Source of the DNA: a bacterium
GTDB lineage: Bacteria; Pseudomonadota; Alphaproteobacteria; SP197
DNA length: 64,000 nt
Assembly (NCBI GenBank): GCA_028821455.1
Contig: JAPPGE010000088.1
Location: 26,857-90,856 of the forward strand
Direction: 5' to 3'
Shown here one piece after another: positions 7,932 through 59,221 of this stretch. How positions within the stretch are numbered: position 1 is the stretch's first letter; each line of letters starts with the position of its first letter. The position numbers were made by a program, and so were the translations under genes. Under the pieces are notes generated by a model. That model saw nothing but the letters and a program-made list of their open reading frames with translations. It did no database searches and was not told the DNA's origin.

Positions 7932-8072
7932 GGTGTTCTCCTCAATGAAACATATGCGCTTTCCCGGTCATCATAGGCGCTATCTCCGGTCTGGCGAAAT
8001 CCGAATGCGATCGCTCGCAAGCGGGCATCCAAGCGCGACTCACACACCGCGGTCCGGGCAGGCCGGTGCGTG

Positions 8073-8837: not shown

Positions 8838-8997
8838 CAGGGATTCCCCACCAGGCACCGCCCGAAGTCTGGCCCGCAAGGCGGGTGACTTGCAAACACT
8901 CCGCATACAGACCGGACGGACCTCACCGGATGTGTGCGTTTGCGGACAGGCGAAGCACGGCTATATTCGCTCACTTCCGGATCACGCGGAATTCGAC

Positions 8998-9660: not shown

Positions 9661-10252
9661 TCCGCTCGATGACGATCCCGCCGCAACTGTCTTTCGCGAC
9701 GTCATTCTGCTTGCCCTGCTGGGATTCGTCGCTCTGGTGATCCTCCTGCTGCCGCACGTCAATCCCCCGGAAAAGAAGACATCCGACCTGATGACGCCAG
9801 GCAACGTGATCGTCGAGATCAAGTGGCCCGAGAGCATCGATGCCGACGTTGACCTCTGGGTCAGGGCTCCAGGCGATGGCGCGGTAGGCTGGTCTCAGCG
9901 CGGCGGCGCCATCTTCGACCTCCTGCGCGATGATCTTGGCTACCTCAACGATCTCACGGCCGCCAATCACGAGATGGCCTATTCCCGGGGTGTTCCGCAC
10001 GGCGAGTATGTCGTCAACGTCCACATGTACCGCAATGACACCGAGATCTGGCCGGTGCCGGTCTATGTCATCATCAGCGTCAAGCTCGACATCGACAAAC
10101 CCGCCCGCCAGATCCTCCTCGGCAAGGTCGACCTCGTGCGTGTCGATCAGGAAGAGACTGTCTATCGCTTCAACCTGAACGAGGCGGGAGGGCTGTTGCC
10201 TCATACCGTCAACAAACTCTACACCTCGCTCTTTGACAGCCAGCGTCTGTGA
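9647..10252 (+). CDS. membrane-anchored hypothetical protein, possibly a diverged ExbD/TolR-like partner
   Basis: GTG start overlapping the upstream gene by 14 nt. Single N-terminal TM with an Asp before the helix (FRDVILLALLGFVALVILLL), reminiscent of the ExbD/TolR/MotB protonatable Asp. No recognisable soluble domain. Confidence 0.5.
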   Translation: MQALDPLDDDPAATVFRDVILLALLGFVALVILLLPHVNPPEKKTSDLMTPGNVIVEIKWPESIDADVDLWVRAPGDGAVGWSQRGGAIFDLLRDDLGYLNDLTAANHEMAYSRGVPHGEYVVNVHMYRNDTEIWPVPVYVIISVKLDIDKPARQILLGKVDLVRVDQEETVYRFNLNEAGGLLPHTVNKLYTSLFDSQRL

Positions 10253-10255
10253 CCG

Positions 10256-10777
10256 ATGTCGCTCGTCGCCATCAGCTTCGTCGCCTGTTTCATGCTGGCT
10301 GCCGTTGCCGGCTGGGCGGCGGTCTCCTCCGCCGGACGCCTGTCCCGCAAGATCGCCGCGCTGGTGGCCCTCGCTCTCCTCGTGCCGGCAGGCTATGGCT
10401 CGGTCAGCGAACTGCTTGGCAGGCCCAAGCCCGTCAGCAGCGCCTGGCTGGAGGACTTCACCACCTATCACACGGTGATCGCCTGGGATATTCACGAGGA
10501 CAAGGCGATCTATCTGTGGCTCGAGATGCCCGACGGCCAGGAACCCAGAGTGTTCGCTTTCCCATACGATACGGCAACGGTCTCGCGGCTGCAGAAGGCC
10601 GGCGAGAGGGCGAAATCACTGGCCAGCAAGCTGCTCGCCCGCCTTGAAGAGACCGGACCGGCAGGCACCAGCCGCCTCGAGTTCACCAGCCAGACCGAGT
10701 TCCGTCGCGAACTTCCCGCCAAGCCCGACCCGGAGGATGAGGATGTCTTCCAGTTCGACGGGAAATCCGAGACCTAG
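10256..10777 (+). CDS. membrane-anchored hypothetical protein
   Basis: Starts 4 nt after the previous stop. N-terminal TM/signal-anchor (LVAISFVACFMLAAVAGWAAV), acidic C-terminus. No family recognised. Confidence 0.5.
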   Translation: MSLVAISFVACFMLAAVAGWAAVSSAGRLSRKIAALVALALLVPAGYGSVSELLGRPKPVSSAWLEDFTTYHTVIAWDIHEDKAIYLWLEMPDGQEPRVFAFPYDTATVSRLQKAGERAKSLASKLLARLEETGPAGTSRLEFTSQTEFRRELPAKPDPEDEDVFQFDGKSET

Positions 10778-11003
10778 GTTCTCCGATGTCCTGCCGCGGC
10801 AGGTTGGGCAGCACGAGGTCTGCGGTCATGATACGCTCCCCCGGCCCGGGGGTTCGTGATCAATACCGCAGGCAAGCCGGTTGAGCCCACGATCCGCCAC
10901 TCGCGGCCGCAGGGCGTCGATGTCGGCGAAACCGGACGCGCGCGTGTCGAAGAAGGGACTCTTTCGGGCAAACGACGGTCCCGGCCGCTGAAAGGACAGG
11001 ACG

Positions 11004-12023
11004 ATGCGACTCCTCGTGACCGGCGGCACCGGGTTCGTCATGAGTCATGTCGTGCGGACCTGGCTCGAACGCCACCCCTCGGCGTCTGTCGTTTCCGTCG
11101 ACGTTGCGCCGCCCGACTCCCTCGCGGAACGCTTCTTCGAGCTCGTCCGGGAACGGCTGACCGTGGTCACCGGAGACGTTCGCGACCCGCACCTGCTCGG
11201 CACGATACCCGGAAAGGAGTCGATGACCCATGTCGTGTGCGGCGCGGCCATGACGCCCACGATCGGCACCACCGAAAAATCCCGGGCGGCGACGATCGCG
11301 GGCGTCAACATCATGGGCCCGGTCCATTGCCTCGAGTTCGCACGCACCCTGCCGCGTCTCAAGCGCATGGTCCATGTTTCCACCGGCAGCGTCTACGGAG
11401 ACGACGGACCCGAGGACGGTGGACCACTTCCCGAGGACGGCCATGTTCGCCCGTTTCCCGCCACGCTCTATCCCATCACCAAGCTCTCCGGCGAGATGCT
11501 GGCCGGACGGTGGCGGGCGATGTTCGGATTGCCCCTCCACATCGTGCGCCTAGCCAGTGTCTACGGACCGATGGATCGCCCGACACCCGGACGTGACTAT
11601 GCCTGCGCTCCCCACGTGATGGTGCACAAAGCCCTGCGCGGAGTGCCCTGGAGCGTGGCGGGCGGAGAAGGCGTCGGCGATTTCATCCACGCCGGCGATG
11701 TGGCCGGCGCAATCTGCGAACTGCTTGCGGCTCCCGTCCTTCGCCACGACGTCTACAACATCGCTTCCGGTGAAACGACCACGCTGGACGCACTCGCCCG
11801 CCTCGTGTGCTCGGTCGTGCCCGGCGCGACCTGGCACGAGGCCGCACCCGGCGACGACGCCGATGTCGTCGGTTCTCCGTCTCGCAAGACCGGCGCCTGG
11901 GGCGCCTACGATATCACGCGCCTCACCTCTGATGTCCGGTGGCGGCCCAGACCGCTCCATCAGGGCCTTGCCAACTACGCGACATGGATCACCGACAACG
12001 AAGCAACCAGACCGCACTCTTGA
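11004..12023 (+). CDS. NAD-dependent epimerase/dehydratase (extended SDR)
   Basis: N-terminal VTGGTGFV Rossmann motif and YxxxK-type region (YPITK). Confidence 0.8.
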   Translation: MRLLVTGGTGFVMSHVVRTWLERHPSASVVSVDVAPPDSLAERFFELVRERLTVVTGDVRDPHLLGTIPGKESMTHVVCGAAMTPTIGTTEKSRAATIAGVNIMGPVHCLEFARTLPRLKRMVHVSTGSVYGDDGPEDGGPLPEDGHVRPFPATLYPITKLSGEMLAGRWRAMFGLPLHIVRLASVYGPMDRPTPGRDYACAPHVMVHKALRGVPWSVAGGEGVGDFIHAGDVAGAICELLAAPVLRHDVYNIASGETTTLDALARLVCSVVPGATWHEAAPGDDADVVGSPSRKTGAWGAYDITRLTSDVRWRPRPLHQGLANYATWITDNEATRPHS

Positions 12024-12299
12024 CGAACGTGTCCGGTCCATGTGACCGGGAGGCGTCAACGAATTCGCCGGCGCAATGTTCTACCCTTCGGGCGCCGTCT
12101 GCTGATCTTTCTCGATTGGACAGATCATCATATTCCCGCTGCGCGTCAACTGCCGTGAAGGGCGGAGGGCCCCGGGATCGTCCATCCTGATGACGCTCGG
12201 TACCGACCTGGATGATGGCGCACGCTCTTGCAGGCCCTCACCACAGTACCGGTTCCATGGAATCAACGACTTGGCTGAACGCCATCCGGTTGTTCAGAC

Positions 12300-14196: not shown

Positions 14197-15009
14197 ATGC
14201 AGCTCAAGCGTCGCCAGAGCGACTCGCACGTGACAATCCACTCTCCGGAGGACATGGACGGCATGCGTGCTGCCGGCTCGCTTGCAGCACGGACGCTCGA
14301 CATGATCGCGCCTCACGTCGTTCCCGGTGTCACCACCGAGACCCTGGATCGTCTTTGTCACACCTTCATCCTCGATCATGGAGCGGTCCCGGCGCCGCTC
14401 AATTATCGCGGTTATCCCAAGTCGATCTGCACCTCGATCAACCACGTGATCTGTCACGGCATACCGAGTTCCGGCAGGGTGTTGCGCGACGGTGACATCA
14501 TGAACATCGACGTCACCGTGCTGCTCGACGGCTGGCATGGCGACACCAGCCGCATGTACTACGTCGGCAACGTGCGCCGGAAAGCCTCGCGCCTGTGCGA
14601 GGTGTGCCACGAATCCATGTGGCTCGGCATCGAATCGGTGAAGCCGGGCGCCCGGCTCGGCGATGTCGGTCATGCAATCCAGAGCCATGCCGAGGCACAG
14701 CGCTGCTCGGTGGTCTACGAGTTCTGCGGCCACGGCATCGGCCGCATCTTCCACGATGCGCCCAACGTCCTTCACGTCGGCGAACCGGGGACCGGTCTCG
14801 AACTTGAACCTGGCATGTTCTTTACCATCGAGCCGATGCTCAATCTTGGTCGCCCGGAAGCTTTGATCCTCGATGACGGCTGGACAGCGGTGACTCGGGA
14901 CAAGAGCCTCTCGGCGCAGTGGGAACATTCCGTCGCCGTGACCGAAGACGGCTTCGAGGTCTTCACGCTGTCGCCTGCCGGCCATACCTTGCCACCCTAT
15001 TCAAGCTGA
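14197..15009 (+). CDS. map: type I methionine aminopeptidase
   Basis: Canonical MAP-I metal-ligand layout (D..D..H..E..E). FCGHGIG and PMLN regions. Confidence 0.9.
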   Translation: MQLKRRQSDSHVTIHSPEDMDGMRAAGSLAARTLDMIAPHVVPGVTTETLDRLCHTFILDHGAVPAPLNYRGYPKSICTSINHVICHGIPSSGRVLRDGDIMNIDVTVLLDGWHGDTSRMYYVGNVRRKASRLCEVCHESMWLGIESVKPGARLGDVGHAIQSHAEAQRCSVVYEFCGHGIGRIFHDAPNVLHVGEPGTGLELEPGMFFTIEPMLNLGRPEALILDDGWTAVTRDKSLSAQWEHSVAVTEDGFEVFTLSPAGHTLPPYSS

Positions 15010-15019
15010 CAAGCGGCCG

Positions 15020-15974
15020 GATGACCGGCGCGATGTCCACCGGGGCGTCCGTATCCGTAAGGCAGAAGGTCGCCGGCAACGTCGTGCTGGCGGTGGGAAC
15101 CTCGGTGTGGGGAACGCACTTCCTTGTAACGGACATCCTGCTTGCAGGGTGGGATCCCTACTTCCTCACCATGGCCCGCTTGCTGTCGGCCACCGGGTTC
15201 CTGCTCACCTTTCTCACCCTGCAGTCCAGGGGGCGTCCCTTCGCCCGGGTCCCCTGGAAGCCGGCCCTGCTGCTGGGGAGTGCCGGCATCGCCGTCTCGA
15301 CTGTGCTTCTCACCCTTGGCGTGAAGTACGCCGGAGCCGTTCCCGCGTCCATCGTCGCCGCGGCCGCTCCGATTGTCGCGGCATTCGTGGCACGGGCGGG
15401 CTTCGGCATTCCTCTCACGCTGGGGGTTGCGTTTGGTGCCGTCATTGCCGTCACCGGGGGCATCATCGCCGCTCTCGGGTCGGCGGCAGGGGGTATCGGT
15501 ACCGTCCGGGGCGGTGAACTGTTCATTCTCGCCGCCATCACCCTCTTCACCTGGTACTCCATAGGCGCCCAGCGCTGGCTGACGGGACTCTCGCAACTTG
15601 GCATCACCGCCATCACCATCATGATCGGCGCCATGACCATGGTGGTCGCCCTGCCGGTACTCGTCGGGCTCGGAATCGCAGAGACCCGCTTCGAGCTCAG
15701 CTGGAGTTCGATCGCTTTCATCCTTTATCTGGGAGCAGGCCCCGCCTCGTTTTCCCTCTTTACCTGGCACTGGGGGGTCAGCCGGGTCGGTGTCACCATT
15801 GCCTCGATCTACTCGAATCTGGTGCCTGTGGTGGTGGTGGCCATCCGTACACTGGAGGGCATCCCGCCGACGACCGGGCACGTGATTGGCGGCATTCTCA
15901 TCATCACCGGTGTCCTCGTCGCCCAGCTCCTCCCCTCCGGGCGTTCACGTCTTGCCCGCAGGCGCCAGGCATGA
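15020..15974 (+). CDS. DMT-superfamily (EamA-like) transporter
   Basis: About 10 TM helices in two EamA-like repeats. ATG 15020 chosen downstream of the map stop. Confidence 0.7.
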
Positions 15975-45997: not shown

Positions 45998-46309
45998 ATG
46001 TACAGGATCGATCCCGGACGCACCGATCTGGCCGAGGAATTCCGGCGCAATCCCTTCGGACCGCACAGTGCCGAGCTCCAGAAGGTGCTCAATGTCATGC
46101 GATGGGAGCCCATCGAAGGCAAGTATGTCCTGGTCAACACGGTTCCTCACAAGGAGTGGTGTCTCGCCCAGCTTCCGGGGAAGCGCGGTGTGCCGGTGAC
46201 GCTCCACGAGGACGTGGTGTTCACCGACCTCGGCGAGGCCGAGTGGTACATCTTCAGACTGCGCTGGAAGAAGCACACCGGGGTTGATCTGGACCAGGCC
46301 TCTCAATGA
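45998..46309 (+). CDS. small subunit of a two-subunit N,N-dimethylformamidase-like amidohydrolase (DmfA1-like)
   Basis: 103 aa, ATG 45998 preceded by AAAGGGA, stop overlaps the large-subunit start (ATGA). Assignment rests on size and coupling to the large subunit. Confidence 0.5.
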   Translation: MYRIDPGRTDLAEEFRRNPFGPHSAELQKVLNVMRWEPIEGKYVLVNTVPHKEWCLAQLPGKRGVPVTLHEDVVFTDLGEAEWYIFRLRWKKHTGVDLDQASQ

Positions 46310-48546
46310 CCTTCGATTACCGCAGACGCATCCTGGGCTACCCGGATCGCGTTCGTGCAAGGCCGGGCGAAACCATTGACTTCAAGATCAGTCTCGAAGA
46401 CCACGAGACCTTCTTGTTCAGGACCGTTCGCATCGTCTGCGGTGTCGAGACTCCGGACGGCGCTCCCTACCGCGAGGTTGAAATCGAGACACCGGCAAAC
46501 GGACTCCACGAAGGCTCCTGTCAACCCATCGATGCCGGTTCCTACGCGATCATCCCCTCCGCACCAATCCTTGACCGGCTTTCGACCTTCACGTTCCAGG
46601 CCTTCATCATGCCGACCCTTCCCGGCGACGGACGCCAGGCCATCGTCAGCCGTGGCTCGGGTCCCGGACGACCCGGTTTCGCGGTCATTCTTGATCTGGA
46701 GGGCGCCCTTGCCCTGATGGTGGGCAACGGTCATGACCTCGTCACCGTTTCGACCGGCAGATCCCTTCAACCGTGGAAATGGGTCTTTGTGACGGCAAGC
46801 TACGACGCAGCGAACGGTTCGGTCACGCTGAGCCAGGAACCGCTCATCCATACCGGCGACTCCAGCAGTCCCGAGCGTATCACGGGGCATGCGCCGCCCG
46901 GCGTGGTCTTCGCGGCCGATCATGACCTCCACATGGCTGCCTGGCAGACCGGATGGCATGAGGATGGCAGACCCCGAATGGTCGGACACTTCAACGGGCG
47001 TATCGACAGTCCGCGCCTTGCCTCGAGGATTCTCGAAGCTCACCAGACAGCGGCACTGGCACGGTCGGGGCCGACGCCGGCCGACGGGGTTGTCGGCGCC
47101 TGGGACTTCGCGGCTGACATTCCCGGCGACACCTTCCCCGACCGTTCCGGCAACGCTCTTCACGGTCGTCTTGTCAATCTGCCCTCGCGGGGGGTGACCG
47201 GACGGCAGTGGGACGGATCCTGCCATGACTGGAGGGAGTGCCCAGACCACTACGCGGCCATTCACTTTCACGACGACGATCTCTTCGACGCCGGCTGGCG
47301 GACCACCGTATCCATGGCCGTGCCCGAGTCTCTCGCCAGCGGAGTCTATGCCGCGCACTGCCAGGCCGGAGATGACACGTGCCACATTCCCTTTGTCATC
47401 GTTCCCGAACGCGAGGCGCCGAGGGAACGCGTCGCCTTTCTCGCCTCCACGGCCACCTGGCTTGCCTATGCCAACAACCACTGGCAACTGGACGAGGAAA
47501 AAGCCGAGGTGAAGCGCGGGCGGATCATCGACTACAGCCCCGACGAACTCTTCCTCCATGAACGGCGCGATCTCGGTCTTTCGACCTATGATACGCATCG
47601 CGACGGATCGGGCGTGTTCTACAGCTCGCGGCTGCGGCCACTGGTGAACAACTACAGTCCGAAGTCGGCGATCTGGAGTTTCAACGCGGACACGCACGTC
47701 ACCGACTGGCTGGAGGCTTCCGGAATCCCGTTCGACGTCGTCACGGACGAAGACATTCACGAGGACGGTGTCGCGGCCCTTGCCGACCACCGGGTCATCA
47801 TCACCGGGACTCATCCGGAGTACTGGTCGACGGACATGCTGGATGCGCTGGCCGCCTATTTCGATCGTGGCGGCAGGCTGATGTACCTTGGCGGTAACGG
47901 GTTCTACTGGCGCATCGCCTGTCATCCCACGCGGGGTGGCGAGGCCATCGAGGTGCGGCGTCCGGAGTCGGGAGCGCGTTTCTGGGCCTCCCGCCCGGGC
48001 GAATATCATCTCTCCTTCAGCGGCGAGAGGGGAGGATTGTGGAAACACATTGGCCGCCCTCCGCAGTCACTCGTCGGTGTCGGCACCTTCGCCACCGGAT
48101 TCGATCGGTCGGGCTGGTTCGTCAAGAAGCCGGACATCGATGACAACCCCCGTGCATCCTGGATCTTTGAGGGTGTCAAGGGCGACATCATCGGTGATTT
48201 CGGTGTCCTGGGTGGCGGAGCGGCAGGCATCGAACTCGACGGTGCCGACGAGGCTCTGGGCACGCCGCCGGAGACCATCGTGCTGGCGAGTTCGGACGGC
48301 CATTCCGCCTACTACATGCAGTCACCCGACGAGATTGTCTTCAACCATGCAGCCGTCACCGGGGACGCCAATCCCAGGGTACGAGCAGACATGGTGTACT
48401 TCACGTTGCCGTCGGGCGCCGGTGTCTTTTCCACCGGCTCCATCAGCTGGGCTGCAAGCCTGGGCTGGAACGGCTACGACAACAACGTGGCACGGATTAC
48501 CGGCAATGTCGTGCGCCGGTTTGCCGCCGACGCGGCCCTGCCCTGA
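46306..48546 (+). CDS. N,N-dimethylformamidase large-subunit-like protein (DmfA2-like)
   Basis: 746 aa, translationally coupled to the small ORF. Domain pattern and length fit the DMFase beta-subunit family. Family assignment is from memory, not searched. Confidence 0.55.
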   Translation: MTFDYRRRILGYPDRVRARPGETIDFKISLEDHETFLFRTVRIVCGVETPDGAPYREVEIETPANGLHEGSCQPIDAGSYAIIPSAPILDRLSTFTFQAFIMPTLPGDGRQAIVSRGSGPGRPGFAVILDLEGALALMVGNGHDLVTVSTGRSLQPWKWVFVTASYDAANGSVTLSQEPLIHTGDSSSPERITGHAPPGVVFAADHDLHMAAWQTGWHEDGRPRMVGHFNGRIDSPRLASRILEAHQTAALARSGPTPADGVVGAWDFAADIPGDTFPDRSGNALHGRLVNLPSRGVTGRQWDGSCHDWRECPDHYAAIHFHDDDLFDAGWRTTVSMAVPESLASGVYAAHCQAGDDTCHIPFVIVPEREAPRERVAFLASTATWLAYANNHWQLDEEKAEVKRGRIIDYSPDELFLHERRDLGLSTYDTHRDGSGVFYSSRLRPLVNNYSPKSAIWSFNADTHVTDWLEASGIPFDVVTDEDIHEDGVAALADHRVIITGTHPEYWSTDMLDALAAYFDRGGRLMYLGGNGFYWRIACHPTRGGEAIEVRRPESGARFWASRPGEYHLSFSGERGGLWKHIGRPPQSLVGVGTFATGFDRSGWFVKKPDIDDNPRASWIFEGVKGDIIGDFGVLGGGAAGIELDGADEALGTPPETIVLASSDGHSAYYMQSPDEIVFNHAAVTGDANPRVRADMVYFTLPSGAGVFSTGSISWAASLGWNGYDNNVARITGNVVRRFAADAALP

Positions 48547-48571
48547 ATCATCGGTTGGGAGGAGGAAAGGC

Positions 48572-50776
48572 ATGCGGCGGCTTCTCGGATATGCCGACAG
48601 GATCAGCGTCAGGCCAGACGAGACCATCAACTTCAAGGTATCAAGCGAGGACGAGGGCACCTTCCATCTCGACATCCTTCGTATCCGTTGCGGTGATGAC
48701 ACGCCGGCTGGACCGGGCCTCAAGGAGACGCCTGTCGAGGCCCGGGTAAACGGCGACTATCCGGCACGCTTCCAGAAGACGCAGGTCGGTTCCTTCGTTT
48801 CGGTCGATCATCCCCGGACACCGGCTCTGGAGAGCTTTACGCTGCAGGCGATGGTCTGGCCGACGCTTCTCGAGAAGGACGAACAGACCATCATGGGCTC
48901 GTGGCATGCCGGTCACCGCAAGGGCTATGCGATCGGCGTCGTCAACGGGAGACTCACTCTCACGATCGGCGATGGCAGCAGTATCGAAACACTGGTCTCT
49001 TCCGCCAGCATGCACGAACGCCACTGGTATCTCGTGGCCGCGACCTTCGACTCCGCGACAGGCGAGGCCACCCTCATCCAGGAGCCTCTCGTGCGCTATG
49101 CCGGCGATGCCGACAGTGCACGGACGACACGACCCATGGATGTCCGACCGGGAAACGGCGGCAGATTCATCATTGCCGGCCACAACAGCGATGACGGCGT
49201 CAGCGGTCTCTTCAATGGCAAGATCGATACACCGGCAGTGACCTCGCGTGTGCTCGAACGCGGCCAGATGGAGCACCTTCTGGATCGGCGCATTCCTCCC
49301 GAGGTCGCCGCCGATGTGGTCGCCCTGTGGGACTTCAGCCGCGAAATGAACGGCGTGACGGCCCACGACATCTCGCCGAACCGGCTTCACGGCACTATCG
49401 TCAACATACCCACGCGAGCCATGAAGGGCTGGAATCACGACGGCAGCGAGATGGTCTGGACCCACCGGCCGGAGCACTACGGCGCCATCCACTTCCATGA
49501 CGACGATCTCTATGACTGCGACTGGGAAACGGACGCCGCCTGGCACGTGCCCGCCAACTGCCGGAGCGGCGCCTTTGCCGCCTTCCTGACCCAGAACGAC
49601 CAGTGGTTCTATATCCCCTTCTATGTCCGCCCGCCGACCGGACGTCCGGGGGCACGCTTGGCCCTCTTGATTGCCACTTGCAGCTACTATGCCTACGTCA
49701 ACAATCACATGCCGATCGGCTGGGGTGACATGGGTGAGCATTCCGGCAACGCCTTCAGCGTGATCGACATGACCGACATTCACCTTCACATGCACCCGGA
49801 GCACGGACTGTCGATGTATGACAACCACAGCGACGGCTCCGGCGTGGCCTATGCCTCGCGTCTGCGCCCGTTCCTGCGCATGGGTCCACGAGACGATCTC
49901 TGGCAATACAACGCCGACACCCACATCACCGACTGGCTCGAGGAACAGGGGATCGCGTTCGATGTCATCACCGACGACGACCTCGACGCCGAGGGTGTGG
50001 CCCTTCTCGAACCCTATGCTTCAGTCATGACGACGACGCATCCCGAGTACACCACCACGGGAATGATGCAGGCCCTGCTTCACTACCAGCAGCGGGGCGG
50101 CCGCTTCATCTACATGGGCGGCAATGGCTTCTACTGGCGGGTGGCGCTTCACCCAACTCTTCCCGGGGTCATGGAAATGCGGCGGGCCGAGGACGGCATG
50201 CGCAGCTGGATCGCCTCGCCGGGTGAATACGTCATGAGTTTCAACGGAGAACTCGGCGGCCTGTGGCGGCGCAACGGCATGAGCCCGGAGGCGATCTGCG
50301 GCACGGGCTTCGCCGCCCAGGGGTTCAATTTCGCCCGGCCCTACACGCGAACCCCGGCGAGCGAGGATTCGCGTGCCTCCTGGATCTTCGAAGGCATCGG
50401 CCGCGACGAGAAGATCGGCGACTTCGGATCCGTCTTCGGCGGTGCCGCCGGAGCCGAGATCGACAGTATCGACCCTCAGGAAGGCACACCGCCCCACGCC
50501 CTCGTCGTCGCCGAGGCCACCGACTTCGGCGTCGATTTCCACTGGGTCAACGAGGAGTTCCTTCACACGCATTCCGCCGTCAACGGCGAGAACTGTCCCC
50601 ACGTGCGCTGTGACATGGTGTTCTACGAAACACCCAACGGCGGCGCGGTCTTCTCGACCAGTTCCATCGCTTTTGCCGGATCCCTTGCCCACAACGGTTA
50701 CGACAACAACGTCAGCCGCCTGCTCTCCAATGTCGTCAACCGCTTCCTCGATCCCGAACCCATCCCGTCACCCTGA
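48572..50776 (+). CDS. second N,N-dimethylformamidase large-subunit-like paralog (no adjacent small subunit)
   Basis: 734 aa, GGAGGA RBS. Clearly paralogous to the preceding gene along its whole length (shared HFHDDDL, YDNNV, GGNGFYWR blocks). Confidence 0.55.
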   Translation: MRRLLGYADRISVRPDETINFKVSSEDEGTFHLDILRIRCGDDTPAGPGLKETPVEARVNGDYPARFQKTQVGSFVSVDHPRTPALESFTLQAMVWPTLLEKDEQTIMGSWHAGHRKGYAIGVVNGRLTLTIGDGSSIETLVSSASMHERHWYLVAATFDSATGEATLIQEPLVRYAGDADSARTTRPMDVRPGNGGRFIIAGHNSDDGVSGLFNGKIDTPAVTSRVLERGQMEHLLDRRIPPEVAADVVALWDFSREMNGVTAHDISPNRLHGTIVNIPTRAMKGWNHDGSEMVWTHRPEHYGAIHFHDDDLYDCDWETDAAWHVPANCRSGAFAAFLTQNDQWFYIPFYVRPPTGRPGARLALLIATCSYYAYVNNHMPIGWGDMGEHSGNAFSVIDMTDIHLHMHPEHGLSMYDNHSDGSGVAYASRLRPFLRMGPRDDLWQYNADTHITDWLEEQGIAFDVITDDDLDAEGVALLEPYASVMTTTHPEYTTTGMMQALLHYQQRGGRFIYMGGNGFYWRVALHPTLPGVMEMRRAEDGMRSWIASPGEYVMSFNGELGGLWRRNGMSPEAICGTGFAAQGFNFARPYTRTPASEDSRASWIFEGIGRDEKIGDFGSVFGGAAGAEIDSIDPQEGTPPHALVVAEATDFGVDFHWVNEEFLHTHSAVNGENCPHVRCDMVFYETPNGGAVFSTSSIAFAGSLAHNGYDNNVSRLLSNVVNRFLDPEPIPSP

Positions 50777-50886: not shown

Positions 50887-52974
50887 TCAGCAAGAATCGG
50901 AAAGGGGAACGACGAGAACATCCAGAGCGATGGCGCCTCGGTCCGTGATAAGGAGAGGATTGACGTCGAGCGCATCGAGGTAGGGCCCGAGTTCGAGGGC
51001 CAGGGTCGACATCTTCATGACCGCATCGACGAGAGCACCGGAACCGACAGCGGCACCGCCGCGCCACCCCTCGAGAAGCCGGGTGAGTTTCAGGCAGGCG
51101 AGAGTTTCCTCGACCTCCAGGCGCAAGACCGGAGGACGGTAGGCGGTCACGTCGTCAAGAAGCTCGACGAGTACACCGCCGGCGCCGGCAAGAACGACGG
51201 GGCCGAACTGGGGATCGCGGGTCATCCCTACCATGGCTTCGATGCCGTCTCCGGCCATGGCCGCCACCATGCAACGTGGCCCCAGGGCCCTGGCCATGGT
51301 GCGCCAGGCATGGATGAGGCCGGCGTCATCGGCAAGGCCGGTCACGACGCCTCCTACATCCGACTTGTGGGCGATGCCCGGCATCGCCGTCTTCAGAACG
51401 ACAGGATAGCCGATCTCTCCTGCCGCCTTGCGGGCGCCTTCTTCGCTGTCGATGATCGCATGGCGCGGTGTCGCGACACCGTAGTCCTCAAGAAGCGCCA
51501 GGCCGGTCGCCTCATCGGCATCGCGCAGGCGCTCCCCCCAGTAAAGCGCTCGCTCCATGTCGGGACGCACGGGCACAGCGGCCGGACGCCGTCGCCAGTT
51601 CCTGCGCCAGAAGGCATGGGAGACGGCCTTGAGACCCGGTACGCTCCCATCGAGGACCGGCAGGTCGTGGTTGTGGGTGAAGTCCCACGCAAGTTCGTGG
51701 TGGTCGGTGCCGGAGTGGTTGGTGATGAGCGCCACGGGTTTCGTCGTCGTCGAGGCCGCAGCCAGGCAGGCGTTTGCGCAGGCGCGGCTGTAGCCGTTGT
51801 GTTGCGACACGTCGAGGAAGAAGGCTCCCAGCGCCGTTGACGGATCGTCCATGAGGGCTGCAAAGCAGTCGCGCATGACGCCGTCGTGATCGACCCCGGT
51901 CCCGAAGGCGTCACAGGGGTTCTCCGCATCGAGGCCGTAGTCGAGGCGTTCTCCAAGACTGGCTCTCGTTTTCTCGCCAATGACGGCGAACGGAACGCCG
52001 AGATCGCTGGCCAGGTCGCAGATCATCTCGCGCTCGCCACCGGAATCGTGGATCGTCGCAAGGGCGCCGTCTCCGACATCCCTCGCCCGGGCAAGCAGCA
52101 GGGACGTGGCAATGAGTTCATCGATCGTCGAGACCCGCAGCACTCCGTGCTTGCGAAAGACGGCGTCGATGGTCCGGTCATCGCCGGCAAGGGCTCCGGT
52201 GTGGCTCACCGCCATGCGTGCCGCCATGTCGGAACGGCCCGCCTTGAGCGCCACCACGGGCACGTCCCTTGCCTGCGCCTTTTCGAGAACCGCTTCGAAC
52301 CCTTGCGGATCACGGATCGTCTCGAGAAAGAGGGTCAGCACCCGCGCCGTGCCGAGTTCGAGGGCATAGTCCATGTAGTCGACGACCGTTGCCGAGGTCT
52401 CCCGACCGACGGAGGCCGCGAAATTCGGTTTCAGGCGGCTTCCCGCGAGGCAGCCGAAGACCGACCCGGACTGGGCCAGGACCGTGATCCGTCCAGGATC
52501 GAACTGCGGGAAACGGTAGGAATTGACGTGGATGGCGGCCTCATAGTTGCAGAATCCCATGCAGTTGACGCCGATCGAGGGAACATCAGCCTCGCGCAGC
52601 ATCGCTTCGAGACGCTCGGCAAGCGCCGGTTCCCTGTCGCCCGGCACGACACAGCTGCCGAAGATCGCCACCGCCCTGACACCTGCCTCGATGGCCGCCG
52701 TCACCTGATCCTCGACACGGGTGTCGCCGACCGCCATGACGGCAAGGTCGACCGGGTCCGGCAGGTCTGCCAGCGACGGATGACAGACATGTCCGGCAAC
52801 CTCTCGATAGCGCGGGTTGACCGGGTAGACCGGTCCGTCAAAATCGAGATCGCGGAATGTCTCGAGAACACTGCGTCCTGTCGCATGTTCGCGCGCCGTC
52901 GCTCCCACCACCGCCACCGATGACGGCACGAGCAGAGGCTGGAGCCGATGCGCGATACGCCGGCGCCGCATCAT
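50887..52974 (-). CDS. ADP-forming acyl-CoA synthetase (acetate-CoA ligase family; CoA-binding + succinyl-CoA-synthetase-like + ATP-grasp)
   Basis: N-terminal CoA-binding Rossmann (SVAVVGAT), phosphohistidine-loop region (SHTGALAG), C-terminal ATP-grasp. Internal ATG chosen to avoid overlap with the upstream gene. Confidence 0.8.
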   Translation of the reverse strand: MMRRRRIAHRLQPLLVPSSVAVVGATAREHATGRSVLETFRDLDFDGPVYPVNPRYREVAGHVCHPSLADLPDPVDLAVMAVGDTRVEDQVTAAIEAGVRAVAIFGSCVVPGDREPALAERLEAMLREADVPSIGVNCMGFCNYEAAIHVNSYRFPQFDPGRITVLAQSGSVFGCLAGSRLKPNFAASVGRETSATVVDYMDYALELGTARVLTLFLETIRDPQGFEAVLEKAQARDVPVVALKAGRSDMAARMAVSHTGALAGDDRTIDAVFRKHGVLRVSTIDELIATSLLLARARDVGDGALATIHDSGGEREMICDLASDLGVPFAVIGEKTRASLGERLDYGLDAENPCDAFGTGVDHDGVMRDCFAALMDDPSTALGAFFLDVSQHNGYSRACANACLAAASTTTKPVALITNHSGTDHHELAWDFTHNHDLPVLDGSVPGLKAVSHAFWRRNWRRRPAAVPVRPDMERALYWGERLRDADEATGLALLEDYGVATPRHAIIDSEEGARKAAGEIGYPVVLKTAMPGIAHKSDVGGVVTGLADDAGLIHAWRTMARALGPRCMVAAMAGDGIEAMVGMTRDPQFGPVVLAGAGGVLVELLDDVTAYRPPVLRLEVEETLACLKLTRLLEGWRGGAAVGSGALVDAVMKMSTLALELGPYLDALDVNPLLITDRGAIALDVLVVPLSDSC

Positions 52975-52990
52975 TCCGGCAATGGGCCGT

Positions 52991-54232
52991 TCAGAAGAAA
53001 ACGTATGAGCGAACCACGATGTTCTTGCGGCACGGCGCATCGGCGGGTGCGCCGGGATCGAAGCAGGCGGAGTGGAAAGACCACCTGGAAACTGATCCGT
53101 CGGTGATGGAATCGTAACACTTCAGCATGGATATCTCGTTGGGCTGCTGGCGTGGAAACCAGTACCAATCGTGGTCCGGGCGATAGGTGAACCGGGTGGT
53201 CTCTCCGACGCGATCGTCATAGATGCGGTAGTTCGTGATGTAGGGCTGATCGGCGAAGGAAGGCCAGGCACACAGGATGAAGGGATACTGCTCGACCGTC
53301 TCGAAGGGTTTGGCGAGATTGATCGACATGAATCGGCGCGACATCTTGGCATCGGCTTCGGCCTCGGAGTAGTGCTGCTCGCGTCCGAAGTTTCGCAGGT
53401 TCTGCGTCAGCAACTCCCGGCACCGCACACGCCCGGAATTGTCGTTGAGATCGTTGTGCACGAGATTGACATATCCGGTGTTCACTCCGGGGTTCTTCGC
53501 GTCCTGATCTTCCCTGACCGGGCCGTCGTAGTCCCGGTTGAAGATGTCGTGATTGTAGACGAGAGCATCGGTGGCACCGGGAAAGAAATCCATGAGAAGC
53601 CGCTCGATTTCCGGATAGAAGACGCGTTCCACTTCCACGGCGTTGTAGAAGTCGGTGCAGCTGGAGTCGAGGTGGGCCAGGGAGACTCCCAGCTTGTCCA
53701 TGCACTCGGGCGCGGTAACGGAAGGCCTTCCAGGGGTTTCTCCGATCCTGCGGGCATCGCGCACCACCTGGGGGAAATAGAGCGAACGCCTCCAGAGGTT
53801 CTCTTCCGCCTGGCGCAACAGGTCTGCTTCCTTTCGCCGCGTCGGATCCTGCCAAAGGTGATTCGACGACACGACGGAATAGGACGGATGCTCGTAGACG
53901 GTATAGCGCAGCGGCAGCACCACTCCTCCCTCGGGTGCTTTCATGCCGCTGGCGCGAATGTGCTCCATGCACTCATCCCAGGTGCGGAAACCGGTTCCCC
54001 GCCTGGTTTGCACAGGACCAGGGGGCGCATCCTCGATCCAGCGAATGAAATCGTCGACATGGCCCAGCGCAATCTGTTCGAGCGCGGCGTTGAGCGCCGC
54101 CCCGGTCCCCGCATCGCCATCGCGCTCGAATGATGCAAAGGAGAGACCGCCATTGGCTGCCACCGGCTCCGGTTGTCCGCTGGTGATTTCCAGAGACGGC
54201 ACCCAGGCCGTCTGGATTCCACGTCCGTCCAT
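52991..54232 (-). CDS. conserved hypothetical 413-aa protein (copy 1 of tandem pair); HxD-containing, possibly a non-haem-iron oxygenase-like fold
   Basis: Start MDGRGIQTAW with GGGGGA RBS, 16 nt upstream of acs. No family recognised. LVHNDLND motif. Confidence 0.6.
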   Translation of the reverse strand: MDGRGIQTAWVPSLEITSGQPEPVAANGGLSFASFERDGDAGTGAALNAALEQIALGHVDDFIRWIEDAPPGPVQTRRGTGFRTWDECMEHIRASGMKAPEGGVVLPLRYTVYEHPSYSVVSSNHLWQDPTRRKEADLLRQAEENLWRRSLYFPQVVRDARRIGETPGRPSVTAPECMDKLGVSLAHLDSSCTDFYNAVEVERVFYPEIERLLMDFFPGATDALVYNHDIFNRDYDGPVREDQDAKNPGVNTGYVNLVHNDLNDNSGRVRCRELLTQNLRNFGREQHYSEAEADAKMSRRFMSINLAKPFETVEQYPFILCAWPSFADQPYITNYRIYDDRVGETTRFTYRPDHDWYWFPRQQPNEISMLKCYDSITDGSVSRWSFHSACFDPGAPADAPCRKNIVVRSYVFF

Positions 54233-54345
54233 CTGATCCCCCGCAAGGCGTCTGTCGCTTGGCCCTACTTTGAGCCCATCGAAGGCGGATTCGCAAGTCC
54301 CGGGCGACTCCACCGCCAGGAGCAGTGGTCAATGGGGAATACAGC

Positions 54346-54531
54346 GGTGTCGTTCGGATCTGTCAATTCTGCCAAAGACGGTTGGCAGGCCTGACCGACA
54401 ACCTCTCCAAAACGTGTGCTGACCGGGTAGACTGGTCCGTCAAGATCCAGACTGCGGAACGTCTCGAAAGCGCTGCGTCCCGTCGCATGTTCGCACGGCT
54501 CCGCTCCCACCACCGCCACCGAAGACGGCAC
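54346..54531 (-). pseudogene. 5' fragment of the acyl-CoA synthetase gene carried inside the tandem duplication
   Basis: Track ORF 54265..54531 begins MPSSVAVVGAEPCEHATGRSAFETFRSLDLDGPVYPV, which aligns with acs residues LVPSSVAVVGATAREHATGRSVLETFRDLDFDGPVYPV. Homology ends about 70 aa in. Confidence 0.55.
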
Positions 54532-54576
54532 GAGCAGAGGCTGAAGCCGTGTTACTTCTGTTGTGAACCGTTCCGT

Positions 54577-55818
54577 TCAGAAGAACACGTACGAGCGAAC
54601 CACGATGTTCTTGCGGCAAGGCGCGTCAGCGGGTGCACCGGGATCGAAGCAGGCAGAGTGGAAAGACCACCTGGAAACGGATCCGTCGGTGATGGAATCG
54701 TAACACTTCAGCATGGAAATCTCGTTGGGCTGCTGGCGTGGAAACCAGTACCAGTCGTGGTCCGGGCGATGGGTGAACACGGTGGTCTCTCCGACCCGGT
54801 CGTCATAGATGCGGTAGTTCGTGATGTAGGGCTGATCGGCGAAGGAAGGCCAGGCACACAGGATGAAGGGATATTGCTCGACGGTCTCGAACGGTTTGGC
54901 GAGATTGATCGACATGAACCGGCGGGACATCTTGGCATCGGCCTCGGCCTCCGTGTAGTGCTGCTCGCGTCCGAAATTCCGCAAGTTCTGCGTCAGCAGC
55001 TCCCGGCATCGCACACGCCCGGAATTGTCGTTGAGGTCGTTGTGCACGAAATTGACATACCCGGTGTTGACTCCGGGGTCCTTCGCATCCTGGTCTTCCC
55101 TGACCGGGCCATCGTAGTCCCGGTTGAAGATGTCATGATTGTAGACGAGGGCATCGGTGGCATCGGGAAAGAAATCCAGGAGAAGCCGCTCGATTTCCGG
55201 ATAGTAGACGCGTTCCACTTCCGCTGCGTCGTAGAAATCGGCGCAGGTGGAATCGAGGTGGGTCAGAGAGACCCCGAGCCTGTCCATGCATTCCGGCGTG
55301 GTGACCGAGAGACCTCCAGAGGTTTCCTCGATCCTGCGGGCATCGCGTACCACCTGGGGAAAATAGAGGGAACTCCGCCAGATGTTCTCTTCCGCCTGGC
55401 GCAACAGGTCTGCTTCCTTTCGCCGCGCCGGATCCTGCCAAAGGTGATTCGACGACACGACGGAGTACGACGGATGCTCGTAGACGGTGTAACGCAACGG
55501 CAGCACCACCCCGCCATCGGGTGCCTCCACGCGGCTGGCGCGAATGTGGTCCATGCACTCGTCCCAGGTGCGGAACCCGGTTCCCCACCTTGTTTCCACG
55601 GGACCAGGGGGCGCATCCTCGATCCAGCGAATGAAATCGTCGACATGGCCCAGGGCGATCTGCTCGAGCGCAGCATCGATCGCCGCCCGGGTCCCCGCAT
55701 CGCCATCACGCTCAAATGATGCAAAGGAGAGACCGCCGTTGGCGGCCACCGGCTCCGGCTGTCCGCTGGTGATCTCAAGAGACGGCACCCAGGCCGTGTG
55801 GATTCCACGTCCGTCCAT
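54577..55818 (-). CDS. conserved hypothetical 413-aa protein (copy 2, about 95% identical to copy 1)
   Basis: Start MDGRGIHTAW with GAGGG RBS. Nearly identical at protein and DNA level to 52991..54232. Confidence 0.6.
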   Translation of the reverse strand: MDGRGIHTAWVPSLEITSGQPEPVAANGGLSFASFERDGDAGTRAAIDAALEQIALGHVDDFIRWIEDAPPGPVETRWGTGFRTWDECMDHIRASRVEAPDGGVVLPLRYTVYEHPSYSVVSSNHLWQDPARRKEADLLRQAEENIWRSSLYFPQVVRDARRIEETSGGLSVTTPECMDRLGVSLTHLDSTCADFYDAAEVERVYYPEIERLLLDFFPDATDALVYNHDIFNRDYDGPVREDQDAKDPGVNTGYVNFVHNDLNDNSGRVRCRELLTQNLRNFGREQHYTEAEADAKMSRRFMSINLAKPFETVEQYPFILCAWPSFADQPYITNYRIYDDRVGETTVFTHRPDHDWYWFPRQQPNEISMLKCYDSITDGSVSRWSFHSACFDPGAPADAPCRKNIVVRSYVFF

Positions 55819-55912
55819 CTCAGCCCTCGCAAGATGTCTGCTGCATGGACTACTTTGGACCCATCGCAGGCGGGGTCGCAAGGCCCGGGTCACGCCACGC
55901 CGGGAGCCGCGG

Positions 55913-56386
55913 TCAATAGGGAATCCTGCCGGTCGTCCGGTTCCAGGCGTCGAAAGTAGCAATCGCTTCGTTCGCCAACAGCCTTCGCGCGGTGATGGAC
56001 CGTTGAGATATGGCCAGCGCCACCTCGCGGTAGATGAGGTCGTCATCGAAACCGATCCGGGCCGCATCCTCCCTGGTGTTGCCATAGACGATTCGGGAAA
56101 GCCGCGCCCAGTAAATGGCGGCAAGACACATCGGACAGGGTTCGCAACTCGTGTAGATGACACACCCTTCCAGAGAAAAGGTGGAGAGTGTGCGGCAGGC
56201 GTCGCGGATGGCTACGATCTCGGCGTGAGCCGTGGGATCATGGTCGGTGGTCACGCGATTGGCGCCTTCGCCGACGATCCGGCCATCGCACACGACGACC
56301 GCGCCGAAGGGCCCGCCTTCGAGTGTCGTCACGCTGGCGTCTGCAAGGGCGATGGCCCGTCGCATGAAGGCAGCATCATCAGGCAT
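55913..56386 (-). CDS. CDA-fold nucleoside/nucleotide deaminase (TadA / guanine-deaminase-like)
   Basis: HAEIVAIR and PCPMC zinc-binding motifs. Confidence 0.8.
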   Translation of the reverse strand: MPDDAAFMRRAIALADASVTTLEGGPFGAVVVCDGRIVGEGANRVTTDHDPTAHAEIVAIRDACRTLSTFSLEGCVIYTSCEPCPMCLAAIYWARLSRIVYGNTREDAARIGFDDDLIYREVALAISQRSITARRLLANEAIATFDAWNRTTGRIPY

Positions 56387-57267
56387 CAGGAGTCCTGCCG
56401 ACTGCGCACATGGCGCACACCGAACTCGGGCGCCCTCTCCTCGACTCCGGCAAAGTAGAAGGCGTTCATCTCGCGCAGCATGGCATCGATCGGGCGAAGG
56501 CCTGCCGGGTCAAGGTCGAAGACGGGTTCGGGTTCGGGCCTGAAATGACCGAACCTGTCCTTGCCCCGGACAAGCGTCGCATAGTCGACTTCACCCACCA
56601 CCTGTCTCATTTCCGGCGTGATGAACCGCAGGGCCAGGCCGATCCGCCTCGATGCCGAAGGGTTCGCCGGGGAGGAATGATAGAGGCTGCCGTGATGAAG
56701 CGACATCTCGCCAGACTTCAGCTCCACGTCGACCGCCTCATCCTCGTCAACGTCGACTGCCAATTCCTGCCCTCTTGAGAGCTGGTTCAACTCGCGCCAG
56801 GTGTCCCGGTGCTCGACCATGCCGTGGCGGTGGGAGCCGGGTATGAACCGCATGGCGCCATTGTCCCGGGTCACGTCGCCCAGCGCGATCCAGGCGGTGG
56901 TTTCGCGTGTGTCGTCATCGAGGCCCCAGTAGCGCAGATCCTGATGCCAACCGACGAAATCCGTCGTGTGGGGCTCCTTGATGAAAAAACCGGCGCTCCA
57001 CAGGAGAAGATCGGGGCCCATCAGCGACTCGACGGGATCGAGAACGCGGCTGTCCCTCGCCAGCGCATGAATCCCGGGCAACACGAGATGGGGAACATTG
57101 AAGGTATACTGGAAGACATGGGGCTGATCGCGGGTACGATCGAGCAGATCCTCGGTTTCCTGACGGAGATCACGCGCCTCGGCGGACGAGATCGCCGGCA
57201 CGGGGAAGAGATAGCCCCGCTCGTGGTAGGCGTCCGCGGACGCGCGGTCGAGAAACCCTCGTGTCAT
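56386..57267 (-). CDS. phytanoyl-CoA dioxygenase (PhyH) family Fe(II)/2-oxoglutarate dioxygenase
   Basis: GWHQDLRYWG HxD region and distal His (GSLYHSS). PhyH/EctD-like length. Confidence 0.7.
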   Translation of the reverse strand: MTRGFLDRASADAYHERGYLFPVPAISSAEARDLRQETEDLLDRTRDQPHVFQYTFNVPHLVLPGIHALARDSRVLDPVESLMGPDLLLWSAGFFIKEPHTTDFVGWHQDLRYWGLDDDTRETTAWIALGDVTRDNGAMRFIPGSHRHGMVEHRDTWRELNQLSRGQELAVDVDEDEAVDVELKSGEMSLHHGSLYHSSPANPSASRRIGLALRFITPEMRQVVGEVDYATLVRGKDRFGHFRPEPEPVFDLDPAGLRPIDAMLREMNAFYFAGVEERAPEFGVRHVRSRQDS

Positions 57268-57543: not shown

Positions 57544-58338
57544 TCAGTCAGTCTTCGTCAGGCGCCTGGCCAGCATGTGTGTGTGATGGATGCCACCGCC
57601 GGCGAGGGCTTCAAGGCGTCGCATGCTCGCGTCAATGCGCCTGGCAAACATCTCTTCACCCAGGGCTTCCCTCAGAATCCCGGCTTCAGGCCCTCGGACC
57701 CATGCCACTTCCCGACGCGCGGCATCGAGGGACCGCACCGTGTCGTCCTTCATGCACGGAGGGCCCAGACCGGCCCGGCCGAACGCCTCCTCGTAGACGG
57801 TGAGATTCTCGAAGTGAAAGGTGAGGCCGTAGGCCTTCATGGCATCGATCCAGGCCTTGTAGAGGTGTGGCGCCGCTTTGGGACCGGAGGGAACCGTGAA
57901 GTCGGCGCAGATTACCTGCCCTCCCGGAACCAGCACGCGCGCCACCTCGTCAAACAGGGCGGATTTGTCGGGAATATGGCAGACGACGTCCTTGGCGAAG
58001 ACGGTATCGAAGGAATCATCATCAAACGGCAATGGTCCCGGTGTGACATGTTGCGTTTCGATCTTCCCGACAAGTCCGGCTTCGCGGATCGTCTCGCGGG
58101 CTCGCATGACGAGATCGCCGGCAACATCGATCGATGTCACGTGACGGGCGCCAAAGGTCCCGACAAGCATGACCGCCGCTCCGCCAAGACCACAACCGAC
58201 ATCGAGAACGGTTCGGCCGGCAAGGTCGACTCCCTCGAGCAGGGCGGCCATTTCCTCGGCGCCCCCAGGCGACAGGAACCCCTTGCCATAGAGCGCCTGC
58301 ATGCCTTCGACAACATTTGTCGAGTACTGGGTCGTCAT
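57544..58338 (-). CDS. class I SAM-dependent methyltransferase
   Basis: Motif I VLDVGCGLGG, acidic post-I residue, motif II DTVFAKDV. Confidence 0.8.
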   Translation of the reverse strand: MTTQYSTNVVEGMQALYGKGFLSPGGAEEMAALLEGVDLAGRTVLDVGCGLGGAAVMLVGTFGARHVTSIDVAGDLVMRARETIREAGLVGKIETQHVTPGPLPFDDDSFDTVFAKDVVCHIPDKSALFDEVARVLVPGGQVICADFTVPSGPKAAPHLYKAWIDAMKAYGLTFHFENLTVYEEAFGRAGLGPPCMKDDTVRSLDAARREVAWVRGPEAGILREALGEEMFARRIDASMRRLEALAGGGIHHTHMLARRLTKTD

Positions 58339-58777
58339 GAACTCGTCTCTCCACGCCACCTCGCGGACGAGGCGCAGTATTGCATGCAGGTCTCGTCGCT
58401 AGACAAGGAGGAATCTGCGCCCCGTGTTCCGTGCCGGCAGACGCAGCAGGCGCCATGGCGGGTCGGACGCCATGGCGAGCGTGCCTGTGCCGAACCGGAC
58501 GTCGATCCCTCGACCAGGACCGCCATCCCCTCCATTGCCCCAGCACATCGCCATAAAGGATGTGTCCGCTCTCAAGGCCGCCGGCGGCGGCGCCCTTTCA
58601 AACGTTGGCTGCCCAATCCAGCGTCAGAATTGGTGAACTCCAACGGGCGCGGTGCGTATGGCGCGTGAATCTTGCCGCATCCACTCGATGAACGGTCGAG
58701 CATCAAGGCCGAAATCCGTGATATCGGAGCCGACACCGGGGAAGACAACGCGAGGTGACGGATGCCTGAACGTCGTC

Positions 58778-59221
58778 TCAGCCCGTCGCCGGCCCGTGCC
58801 TGAGGGGCGTACCTTCACCGGGGAAGCCCTCGTAGCGCGGCAGATCGTCGGCGACTTCCATCCACGCGATGCGCTCGGGTTCGAAGGCATGGGCCGTCGG
58901 AACCAGGGATTCGGGCTCGTCGAACGTGCTGATGTGGAACTCGATGATCGGACCAAGGTCGCCACCGTCGCCTTCCCAGGTCAGGGGCGTGCCGCAGTCG
59001 CCGCAGAACCCGCGAAGCACACCGGGTGACGATTGGTAGTGCCTGCGGTCCGTACCGCTGAAGGTCACCTGCTCGGCCCGGTAACCGGCAAGCGTCACCA
59101 CCGCAGCACCGTTGTGCTTGCGGCAGCTGTGACAGTGGCAATGGGTCACGTCGAAAGGCTCGTCCTTCGCCTCGAAGCGTATGGCGCCACACATGCAGCG
59201 CCCGGTTCTCGTCACGGTCAT
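58778..59221 (-). CDS. GFA-family (glutathione-dependent formaldehyde-activating / CENP-V-like) zinc protein
   Basis: CMCGAIRF, HCHCHSCRK and CGDCGTPL cysteine motifs; 147 aa. Confidence 0.75.
   Translation of the reverse strand: MTVTRTGRCMCGAIRFEAKDEPFDVTHCHCHSCRKHNGAAVVTLAGYRAEQVTFSGTDRRHYQSSPGVLRGFCGDCGTPLTWEGDGGDLGPIIEFHISTFDEPESLVPTAHAFEPERIAWMEVADDLPRYEGFPGEGTPLRHGPATG

Follow-up and report, generated by a model that had tools for sequence, protein, structure and literature searches.

Among the described relatives of the genes considered here, CmcJ has a role in the C-7 hydroxylation of cephamycin, and CTB9 from Cercospora (PDB 7EUS, 7EUT, 7EUU) is a 2-oxoglutarate (2OG)-dependent dioxygenase of cercosporin biosynthesis. 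NvfI, from Aspergillus novofumigatus (PDB 7DE2, 7EMZ, 7ENB), is an Fe(II)/alpha-ketoglutarate endoperoxidase of 278-298 amino acids (aa), which acts on a meroterpenoid substrate and belongs to a biosynthetic cluster (PMC8292354). Short-form bacterial CmcJ/NvfI oxidoreductases (about 270-320 aa) are also known, through the NCBIfam model NF041278 and the Pfam family PF27522. Here, we describe two tandem genes encoding a longer form of these enzymes, located in a stretch of 64,000 nucleotides (hereafter the window: contig JAPPGE010000088.1, positions 26,857 to 90,856 of the forward strand, assembly GCA_028821455.1) from an alphaproteobacterium of the GTDB lineage SP197. We consider, with a probability of about 0.88, that each copy is a non-haem Fe(II)/2OG-dependent oxygenase of the CmcJ/NvfI (AsaB-like) family acting on a small molecule. 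Family membership, a predicted jelly-roll fold and the conserved residues H259, D261, H387, R402 and R408 give us high confidence in the oxygenase assignment, while the mechanism would be that of the superfamily.

Both genes lie on the minus strand, copy A (the downstream paralogue) at 52991..54232 and copy B (the upstream paralogue) at 54577..55818, and each encodes 413 aa from its ATG. The two proteins are 92% identical (33 of the 413 residues differ) and their coding DNA is 91.5% identical. An initial model-generated reading of the nucleotides (hereafter the first-pass annotation) had placed a duplicated 413-aa protein at 52991-55818, ends that the two open reading frames match exactly, and the HNDLND, WYWFPRQQ and CYDS segments to which it drew attention are all present in the translations. 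The 413-aa products recur unchanged in the public gene calls of two other assemblies, the locus with both copies being found on a contig of NCBI GCA_028820225.1 and on an ENA sponge-metagenome scaffold, which were assembled independently.

The same annotation had found no family to which the proteins could be assigned, a statement that comparison with NF041278 (CmcJ/NvfI family oxidoreductase) overturns: copies A and B score 134.9 and 140.4 bits, respectively, over residues ~168-413, well above the curated cutoff of 80 bits. In addition, public gene calls assign PF27522 ('YDMC') to the identical protein, all 240 homologues among the matches listed carry it, and NCBI already uses the name CmcJ/NvfI family oxidoreductase for several of them. 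Our own Pfam-A scan of both copies returned no match, which is uninformative because the Pfam-A copy used does not include PF27522; a Pfam-only look therefore finds nothing. When a single sequence is used as query, NvfI is the sole solved relative detected (E ~5e-6, C-terminus only); a profile of 98 sequences recovers CTB9 (E 1e-47) and NvfI (E 3e-45) over nearly the whole domain. The proteins are thus members of an already known family, the CmcJ/NvfI (AsaB-like; NF041278, PF27522) Fe(II)/2OG oxygenases. No match to a well-characterised family with a housekeeping role was found, the family being known and the long-form subfamily being uncharacterised and not housekeeping. The false flag of an unknown family can be removed, as these are recognisable Fe(II)/2OG oxygenases with close homologues already so named publicly. 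What is new is an uncharacterised, tightly conserved long-form subfamily present in at least 582 species-level metagenome-assembled genomes (MAGs) from three bacterial classes, about which a literature search on YDMC, PF27522, NF041278, CmcJ/NvfI and AsaB returned nothing concerning bacterial long forms. The known class of chemistry allows direct testing, and the local operon offers one concrete context for a substrate hunt.

Structure prediction supports this assignment. An AlphaFold model built from the 98 family members (19 long and 79 short) has a mean pLDDT of 83 and a pTM of 0.83, residues 1-40 alone being unmodelled (an earlier AlphaFold model from 17 near-identical long forms reached a pLDDT of 39 and was discarded). 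The retained model shows a double-stranded beta-helix (jelly-roll) fold, most like those of the solved family members NvfI and CTB9, with a superposition on NvfI that takes in only 262 residues. The first-pass annotation had considered the protein compatible with a metal-dependent oxygenase or hydrolase. The HxD metal motif and the oxygenase half of this proposal are borne out by the fold and the ligands, but the hydrolase half finds no support and was rejected, as each structural neighbour of the model is an Fe/2OG oxygenase.

In copy A, HNDLND occupies residues 259-264 (53441..53458, minus strand), where H259-x-D261 would supply the first two iron ligands of the facial triad. The segment from the distal iron ligand H387 to R402 and R408, which are the counterparts of the PRESIxVR arginines and presumably bind the 2OG carboxylate, is encoded at 53009..53074 on the same strand. 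These assignments combine the translation, invariance and the NvfI alignment. Columns that are invariant over the 98 long and short members include H228, H259, D261, S266, R270, H387, R402, and R408; in the profile alignment, H259, D261, and H387 face H155, D157, and H270 of the NvfI chain, and R402 and R408 face R285 and R291 (the arginines of NvfI PRESIDVR). The HxD...H facial triad is conserved and is predicted to bind iron. The iron-ligand positions given for NvfI are 135, 137, and 250, i.e., chain positions 155, 157, and 270 once the offset of a 20-residue tag is taken into account (PMC8292354). Although the text of that paper reads 'His135-His137-Asp250', position 137 of the deposited sequence is an Asp and position 250 a His, so that the wording looks like a label swap (PMC8292354).

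If the copies follow the mechanism of the superfamily, Fe(II) held by the triad would bind 2OG and O2, decarboxylation of 2OG would yield succinate, CO2 and an Fe(IV)=O species, and the latter would abstract a hydrogen from the small-molecule substrate, resulting in hydroxylation or in oxidative dealkylation/desaturation. Within their operon (see below), the enzymes would contribute to the oxidative processing of an imported nitrogenous compound, the acid product of which would be CoA-activated. Three sets of observations weigh against such an interpretation. The RESIE motif of the family reads RKN(I/V)V here, its Ser being replaced by the invariant Asn404 and its Glu residues being replaced as well; CRKN(I/V)VVR (CRKNIVVR) stands for PRESIExR throughout the long-form subfamily, with R402 and R408 invariant. 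Given N404 in place of the motif Ser, 2OG binding could differ in detail. Furthermore, the unmodelled residues 1-40 (pLDDT ~35) are highly conserved. Lastly, neighbourhoods were compared in 82-84 loci out of at least 582, and the neighbours of the ~74 homologues outside the window's own arrangement form a heterogeneous, catabolic set, in which no partner recurs in more than ~15% of loci and which leaves the substrate unconstrained.

The long-form subfamily (~425 aa) adds a ~100-residue N-terminal part and an inserted helix to the family core. In copy A, the subfamily-specific N-terminal extension corresponds to residues 1-100 (53933..54232, minus strand), as delimited by secondary structure and pLDDT; it lies outside NF041278 and is absent from the short forms of 270-320 aa. 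Its first 40 residues are strongly conserved (GQPxPxAANGGLS...GDAGT) and residues 41-100 form a helix-helix-hairpin-helix unit in the model. Further along the chain, a long helix is inserted at residues ~125-149, and loops 233-256 and 278-296 are longer than in short forms. The N-terminal residues and the ~125-149 helix most likely shape the substrate pocket or an oligomer interface. Short forms share NF041278 and PF27522 with the long form, are 31-41% identical to it over residues ~100-413 or, more narrowly, ~170-413, and have the motifs VHNDxT..SG..R.R, RVGE, KCYDS, and H(T/S)A in common with it. However, they have neither residues 1-100 nor the 125-149 helix, and their INVWRP and PRESIExR are INLAKP and CRKN(I/V)VVR in the long form. 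The solved fungal enzymes are more distant. NvfI resembles the window protein in its fold and in the positions of its iron ligands, but the two are only 16-19% identical, and the window protein is bacterial, has the ~100 extra N-terminal residues, the ~125-149 helix and the longer loops, and is encoded outside any recognisable natural-product cluster. Similarly, CTB9 resembles it in fold but is 17-18% identical, and is a fungal polyketide tailoring enzyme devoid of the N-terminal extension.

An exhaustive search covered 1.84 billion representatives clustered at 50% identity. The full-length long form corresponds to one of them (P0121, 70% identity), that is, to a single isolated cluster with no intermediates, the other high scorers being fragments or frameshifted reads. 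No other architecture with the N-terminal part was detected among the matches listed. Six representatives (P0133, P0173, P0179, P0185, P0198, and P0265) were considered as divergent long-form intermediates and rejected, as they are frameshifted translations; such entries, whose probable origin is long-read metagenome assembly, can pass for divergent relatives when sequences are searched. In a 480-aa homologue (P0034), ~55 residues of the conserved N-terminal segment (PPLELTEGQPPPIAANGGLSYMSFDQDGDAGT...) are duplicated in tandem within the chain; this segment belongs to the part left unmodelled by AlphaFold.

The genomes that carry a relative (all of them MAGs) belong to Alphaproteobacteria, Gammaproteobacteria, Binatia and a few other groups; to judge from record names, sponge metagenomes are the source of many of them, and soil or lake samples of some. 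Identity averages 80-81% between classes and phyla (Binatia, Gamma- and Alphaproteobacteria) and 82% within Alphaproteobacteria. Gammaproteobacterial sequences fall at about five places in the gene tree, the phylogeny being at odds with taxonomy, and several genomes carry two loci or tandem copies. Based on the high identity across classes, the conflict between tree and taxonomy, the multiple copies and the mobile-type neighbours, we infer that the subfamily is a strongly constrained, horizontally exchanged accessory gene. Transposases (DDE/Tn5), HipA-like toxin genes or a PglZ (BREX-type) gene flank some homologues (L003 at 4195-5931 and 9770-12103; L004 at 7286-7717 and 11101-11649; L085 at 227-2332), which fits mobile or variable genome regions. 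Second long-form copies have arisen independently in unrelated lineages (L014 at 7825-9042 and 10001-11215; L037 at 10001-11224 and 14959-15708), and four MAGs contain two separate loci each (L005/L043, L018/L049, L036/L052, and L032/L063). Gene amplification is recurrent within the long-form subfamily.

In the window, the duplication consists of two tandem units (52766..55943, minus strand; unit B at 55943-54368 and unit A at 54360-52766), which blastn aligns with 88% identity over 1596 columns. Each unit of ~1.59 kb comprises a leader of ~128 nucleotides (nt), the oxygenase gene and ~200 nt from the start of the acyl-CoA synthetase gene that follows copy A. A dead, start-less fragment of the synthetase 5' end consequently lies between the oxygenase copies (about 54349..54576, minus strand; an 82% repeat of 52747-52947, with a CoA_binding_2 score of 29 bits). 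A 21-nt deletion extends across its start and similarity is gone after ~200 nt. Identity between this stub and the live 5' end is 82%, compared with 91.5% for the oxygenase coding sequences; the stub is a built-in neutral comparator, which shows that the oxygenase copies are under selection. Between copies A and B, dN/dS is low (0.12) at a dS of 0.31, and the N-terminal half and the C-terminal half give similar values. Both copies have long been under purifying selection. The tandem pair is also found at sister-species loci L005, L006, L008, and L011. The duplication is far beyond chance and, because it is found in two assemblies and at these four loci, it is not an assembly artefact. In the tree, upstream copies of the sister species cluster with upstream copies and downstream copies with downstream copies, so that the duplication is older than those species. 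The copies have diverged symmetrically; relative to the family consensus, each has changed at 9-10 positions that are otherwise conserved, and the catalytic residues are whole in both.

The gene downstream of copy A (50887..52974, minus strand) encodes a protein of 695 aa. The TGA of copy A is followed by a spacer of 16 nt (ACGGCCCATTGCCGGA) and then by the ATG of this gene at 52974, in agreement with the 16-nt gap to an NDP-forming acyl-CoA synthetase described in the first-pass annotation. As a single chain combines CoA_binding_2 (PF13380, 77 bits), Succ_CoA_lig (PF13607, 114 bits) and ATP-grasp_5 (PF13549, 173 bits), the protein is, judging by its domain architecture, an ADP-forming acyl-CoA synthetase of the ACD superfamily. 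Its best solved relatives are DddX (PDB 7CM9, 272 bits), an ATP-dependent dimethylsulfoniopropionate (DMSP) lyase to which it can be aligned end to end, and the ADP-forming 4-hydroxybutyrate-CoA and 3-hydroxypropionate-CoA ligases, which score nearly as high (228 and 223 bits). The synthetase was compared with DddX at four residues defined in the DddX study, namely His292, Trp391, Phe435, and Glu432 (PMC8163506). The phosphohistidine His292 on the swinging loop is kept (SHTGALAGD in the window, AHSGALAGD in DddX), and the cation-pi residues Trp391 and Phe435 are replaced by Phe and Tyr, which are aromatic but not identical. In contrast, Glu432, the catalytic base of DMSP-CoA cleavage, sits in a five-residue insertion of DddX (dhefd) and has no counterpart in the synthetase, on which ground its identification as DddX was rejected. 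The protein is thus best classed as an ACD-type CoA ligase rather than a demonstrated DMSP lyase, and it may act on a cationic (betaine- or sulfonium-type) short acid.

A synthetase gene is located directly downstream of the oxygenase only in L005-L008, L010, and L012, which all belong to the clade of the window (≥86% identity), and L009, also inside this clade, is without it. In one gammaproteobacterial lineage (L015/L086, L024), a 33%-identical ADP-forming synthetase is adjacent but convergent; none was found at the other ~74 of the loci searched. Because it is limited to six clade loci and one convergent case, the synthetase link is clade-specific and does not define the function of the family; the pairing may be a local operon arrangement.

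Upstream of copy B, the minus strand carries a series of genes, beginning in the same operon with a GuaD-type guanine-deaminase homologue of 157 aa (55913..56386; dCMP_cyt_deam_1). This protein of the cytidine deaminase fold has the Bacillus subtilis guanine deaminase 1WKQ as its best solved match (166 bits over the full length, compared with 113 for guanosine deaminases), and its start overlaps the stop of the next gene at 56386. The latter encodes a PhyH-family Fe(II)/2OG oxygenase (56386..57267; PF05721, 110.6 bits), and is followed by a class I S-adenosylmethionine-dependent methyltransferase (57544..58359; Methyltransf_11/25, no NCBIfam equivalog being reached) and by a GFA-family (glutathione-dependent formaldehyde-activating enzyme-like) protein (58778..59221; PF04828 in a gene call of the same locus). 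Two ABC permeases and a PotA-like ATPase are encoded further upstream on the same strand. On the plus strand, convergent to the synthetase gene, a DMFase-like cluster (45998-50776) is made up of a small alpha-like gene (PF26354) and two tandem paralogous ~740-aa beta-like genes (Laminin_G_3 and DMFA2_C); it is kept in sister species, and NCBIfam models gave no match to its genes. The convergent strand also bears a PotF/PotD-like binding protein and a LysR regulator. No terminator-like site was found between copy B, copy A and the synthetase gene, in a promoter/terminator scan that was overall no better than shuffled expectation. A single operon probably groups a polyamine-type ABC importer, the GFA protein, the methyltransferase, the PhyH oxygenase, the guanine-deaminase-like enzyme, the two oxygenase copies and the ADP-forming CoA ligase. 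Such a set of genes suggests that a nitrogenous compound is imported and degraded oxidatively.

How far the adjacent synthetase informs on the oxygenase can now be weighed. The first-pass annotation envisaged an unnamed enzyme family whose carboxylic acid product is converted into a CoA thioester by the adjacent synthetase, the two genes forming a functional pair. The common strand, the 16-nt spacing without a terminator-like site, the adjacency kept in six sister-species loci and the adjoining, though convergent, 33%-identical synthetase of an independent gammaproteobacterial lineage all agree with this proposal, as does the fact that the closest solved relatives of the synthetase all use short omega-substituted C3-C4 acids. 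We nevertheless hold it to be unlikely, since the family is already named and known, the synthetase is missing at ~74 of the loci compared as well as at L009 within the clade, and the duplication took along only a dead synthetase stub while both oxygenase copies were maintained. The comparison of neighbourhoods across genomes that the same annotation had put forward as a check leads to a similarly divided outcome, with adjacency in the closest relatives and heterogeneous neighbours elsewhere. A different pathway would make the enzyme an oxidative N- (or O-/S-) demethylase, which hydroxylates a methyl group and releases formaldehyde that is captured with the help of nearby GFA-family proteins. 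Oxidative demethylation is a common outcome in the Fe(II)/2OG superfamily, GFA genes lie within a few kb of a homologue at 13 of 84 loci from three lineages (the window's clade, L034, and six Binatia loci), and the guanine-deaminase-like enzyme of the operon, together with the DMFase-like amidases, represents genes for nitrogenous, possibly N-methylated compounds. However, GFA is a large, multi-copy family, for which 13 of 84 could be chance, no recurrent formaldehyde-oxidation genes were seen in the neighbourhoods compared, a methyltransferase in the same operon is ill-suited to simple demethylation, and the characterised members NvfI and CTB9 are not demethylases, nor is CmcJ known to be one. 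We therefore regard demethylation as improbable.

Two further explanations depart from small-molecule catalysis altogether. The ~80% identity across phyla might reflect a macromolecular substrate, the enzyme then being a protein or RNA hydroxylase, and the lack of a conserved metabolic neighbourhood and the conserved extra N-terminal module, which could serve as a docking element, are compatible with such a role. Yet the distribution of the gene, which is patchy, often multi-copy, beside transposases and toxin-antitoxin genes and in conflict with taxonomy, is that of a mobile accessory gene, and known relatives all act on small molecules, making this a slim prospect. As for the duplicates, the consensus departures of each copy (e.g., W78R, G169R, L170P, and D197N in copy A; R149S, A186T, and R347V in copy B) could mean that one or both have been decaying, or have been non-catalytic, since the duplication. 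This is very improbable, as both reading frames are intact with a dN/dS far below one at this level of divergence, all catalytic residues are kept in both copies, and both paralogues are retained in four sister species while the co-duplicated synthetase stub decayed.

Returning to two functional small-molecule oxygenases, a broader scenario may be offered very tentatively, as it appears improbable in its entirety. The long form would be an oxygenase with a function of its own, spread by horizontal transfer, in which the conserved N-terminal module forms a new site for its substrate, a widespread nitrogenous metabolite that may come from the host. It would have been recruited and duplicated in a catabolic operon of a symbiont clade, along with the guanine-deaminase-like enzyme, PhyH, GFA, the DddX-related ligase (with its aromatic 'cation box') and the DMFase-like amidases. 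One may speculate on an N-methylated purine or a betaine-type acid as examples of substrates, which lean on sponge chemistry and on gene content. If true, recruitment of the long-form oxygenase would define a new degradation pathway.

Elsewhere in the subfamily, neighbours were clustered de novo in 82 loci with crude picking of open reading frames, recurrent ones were annotated with Pfam, and the outcome was checked against tblastn searches with named neighbours and against precomputed gene calls. The clusters never extended beyond ~15 loci, and the one ranking second in size was an antisense shadow of the gene itself. TauD is a neighbour in 10 loci, and other recurrent neighbours are an amidase, an amidohydrolase, GST, SDR, a luciferase-like monooxygenase and ABC transporters. 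Opine/sarcosine-oxidase-like genes near L003 and L085 were rejected as recurrent partners, as they are confined to those two related loci. An epoxide hydrolase (EHN and alpha/beta hydrolase) is encoded on the same strand, ~160 nt downstream, in six loci, all of them from Binatia (L029, L033, L053, L059, L062, and L066), with GST, GFA, and TauD nearby. This context is specific to that lineage and is unlike that of the window.

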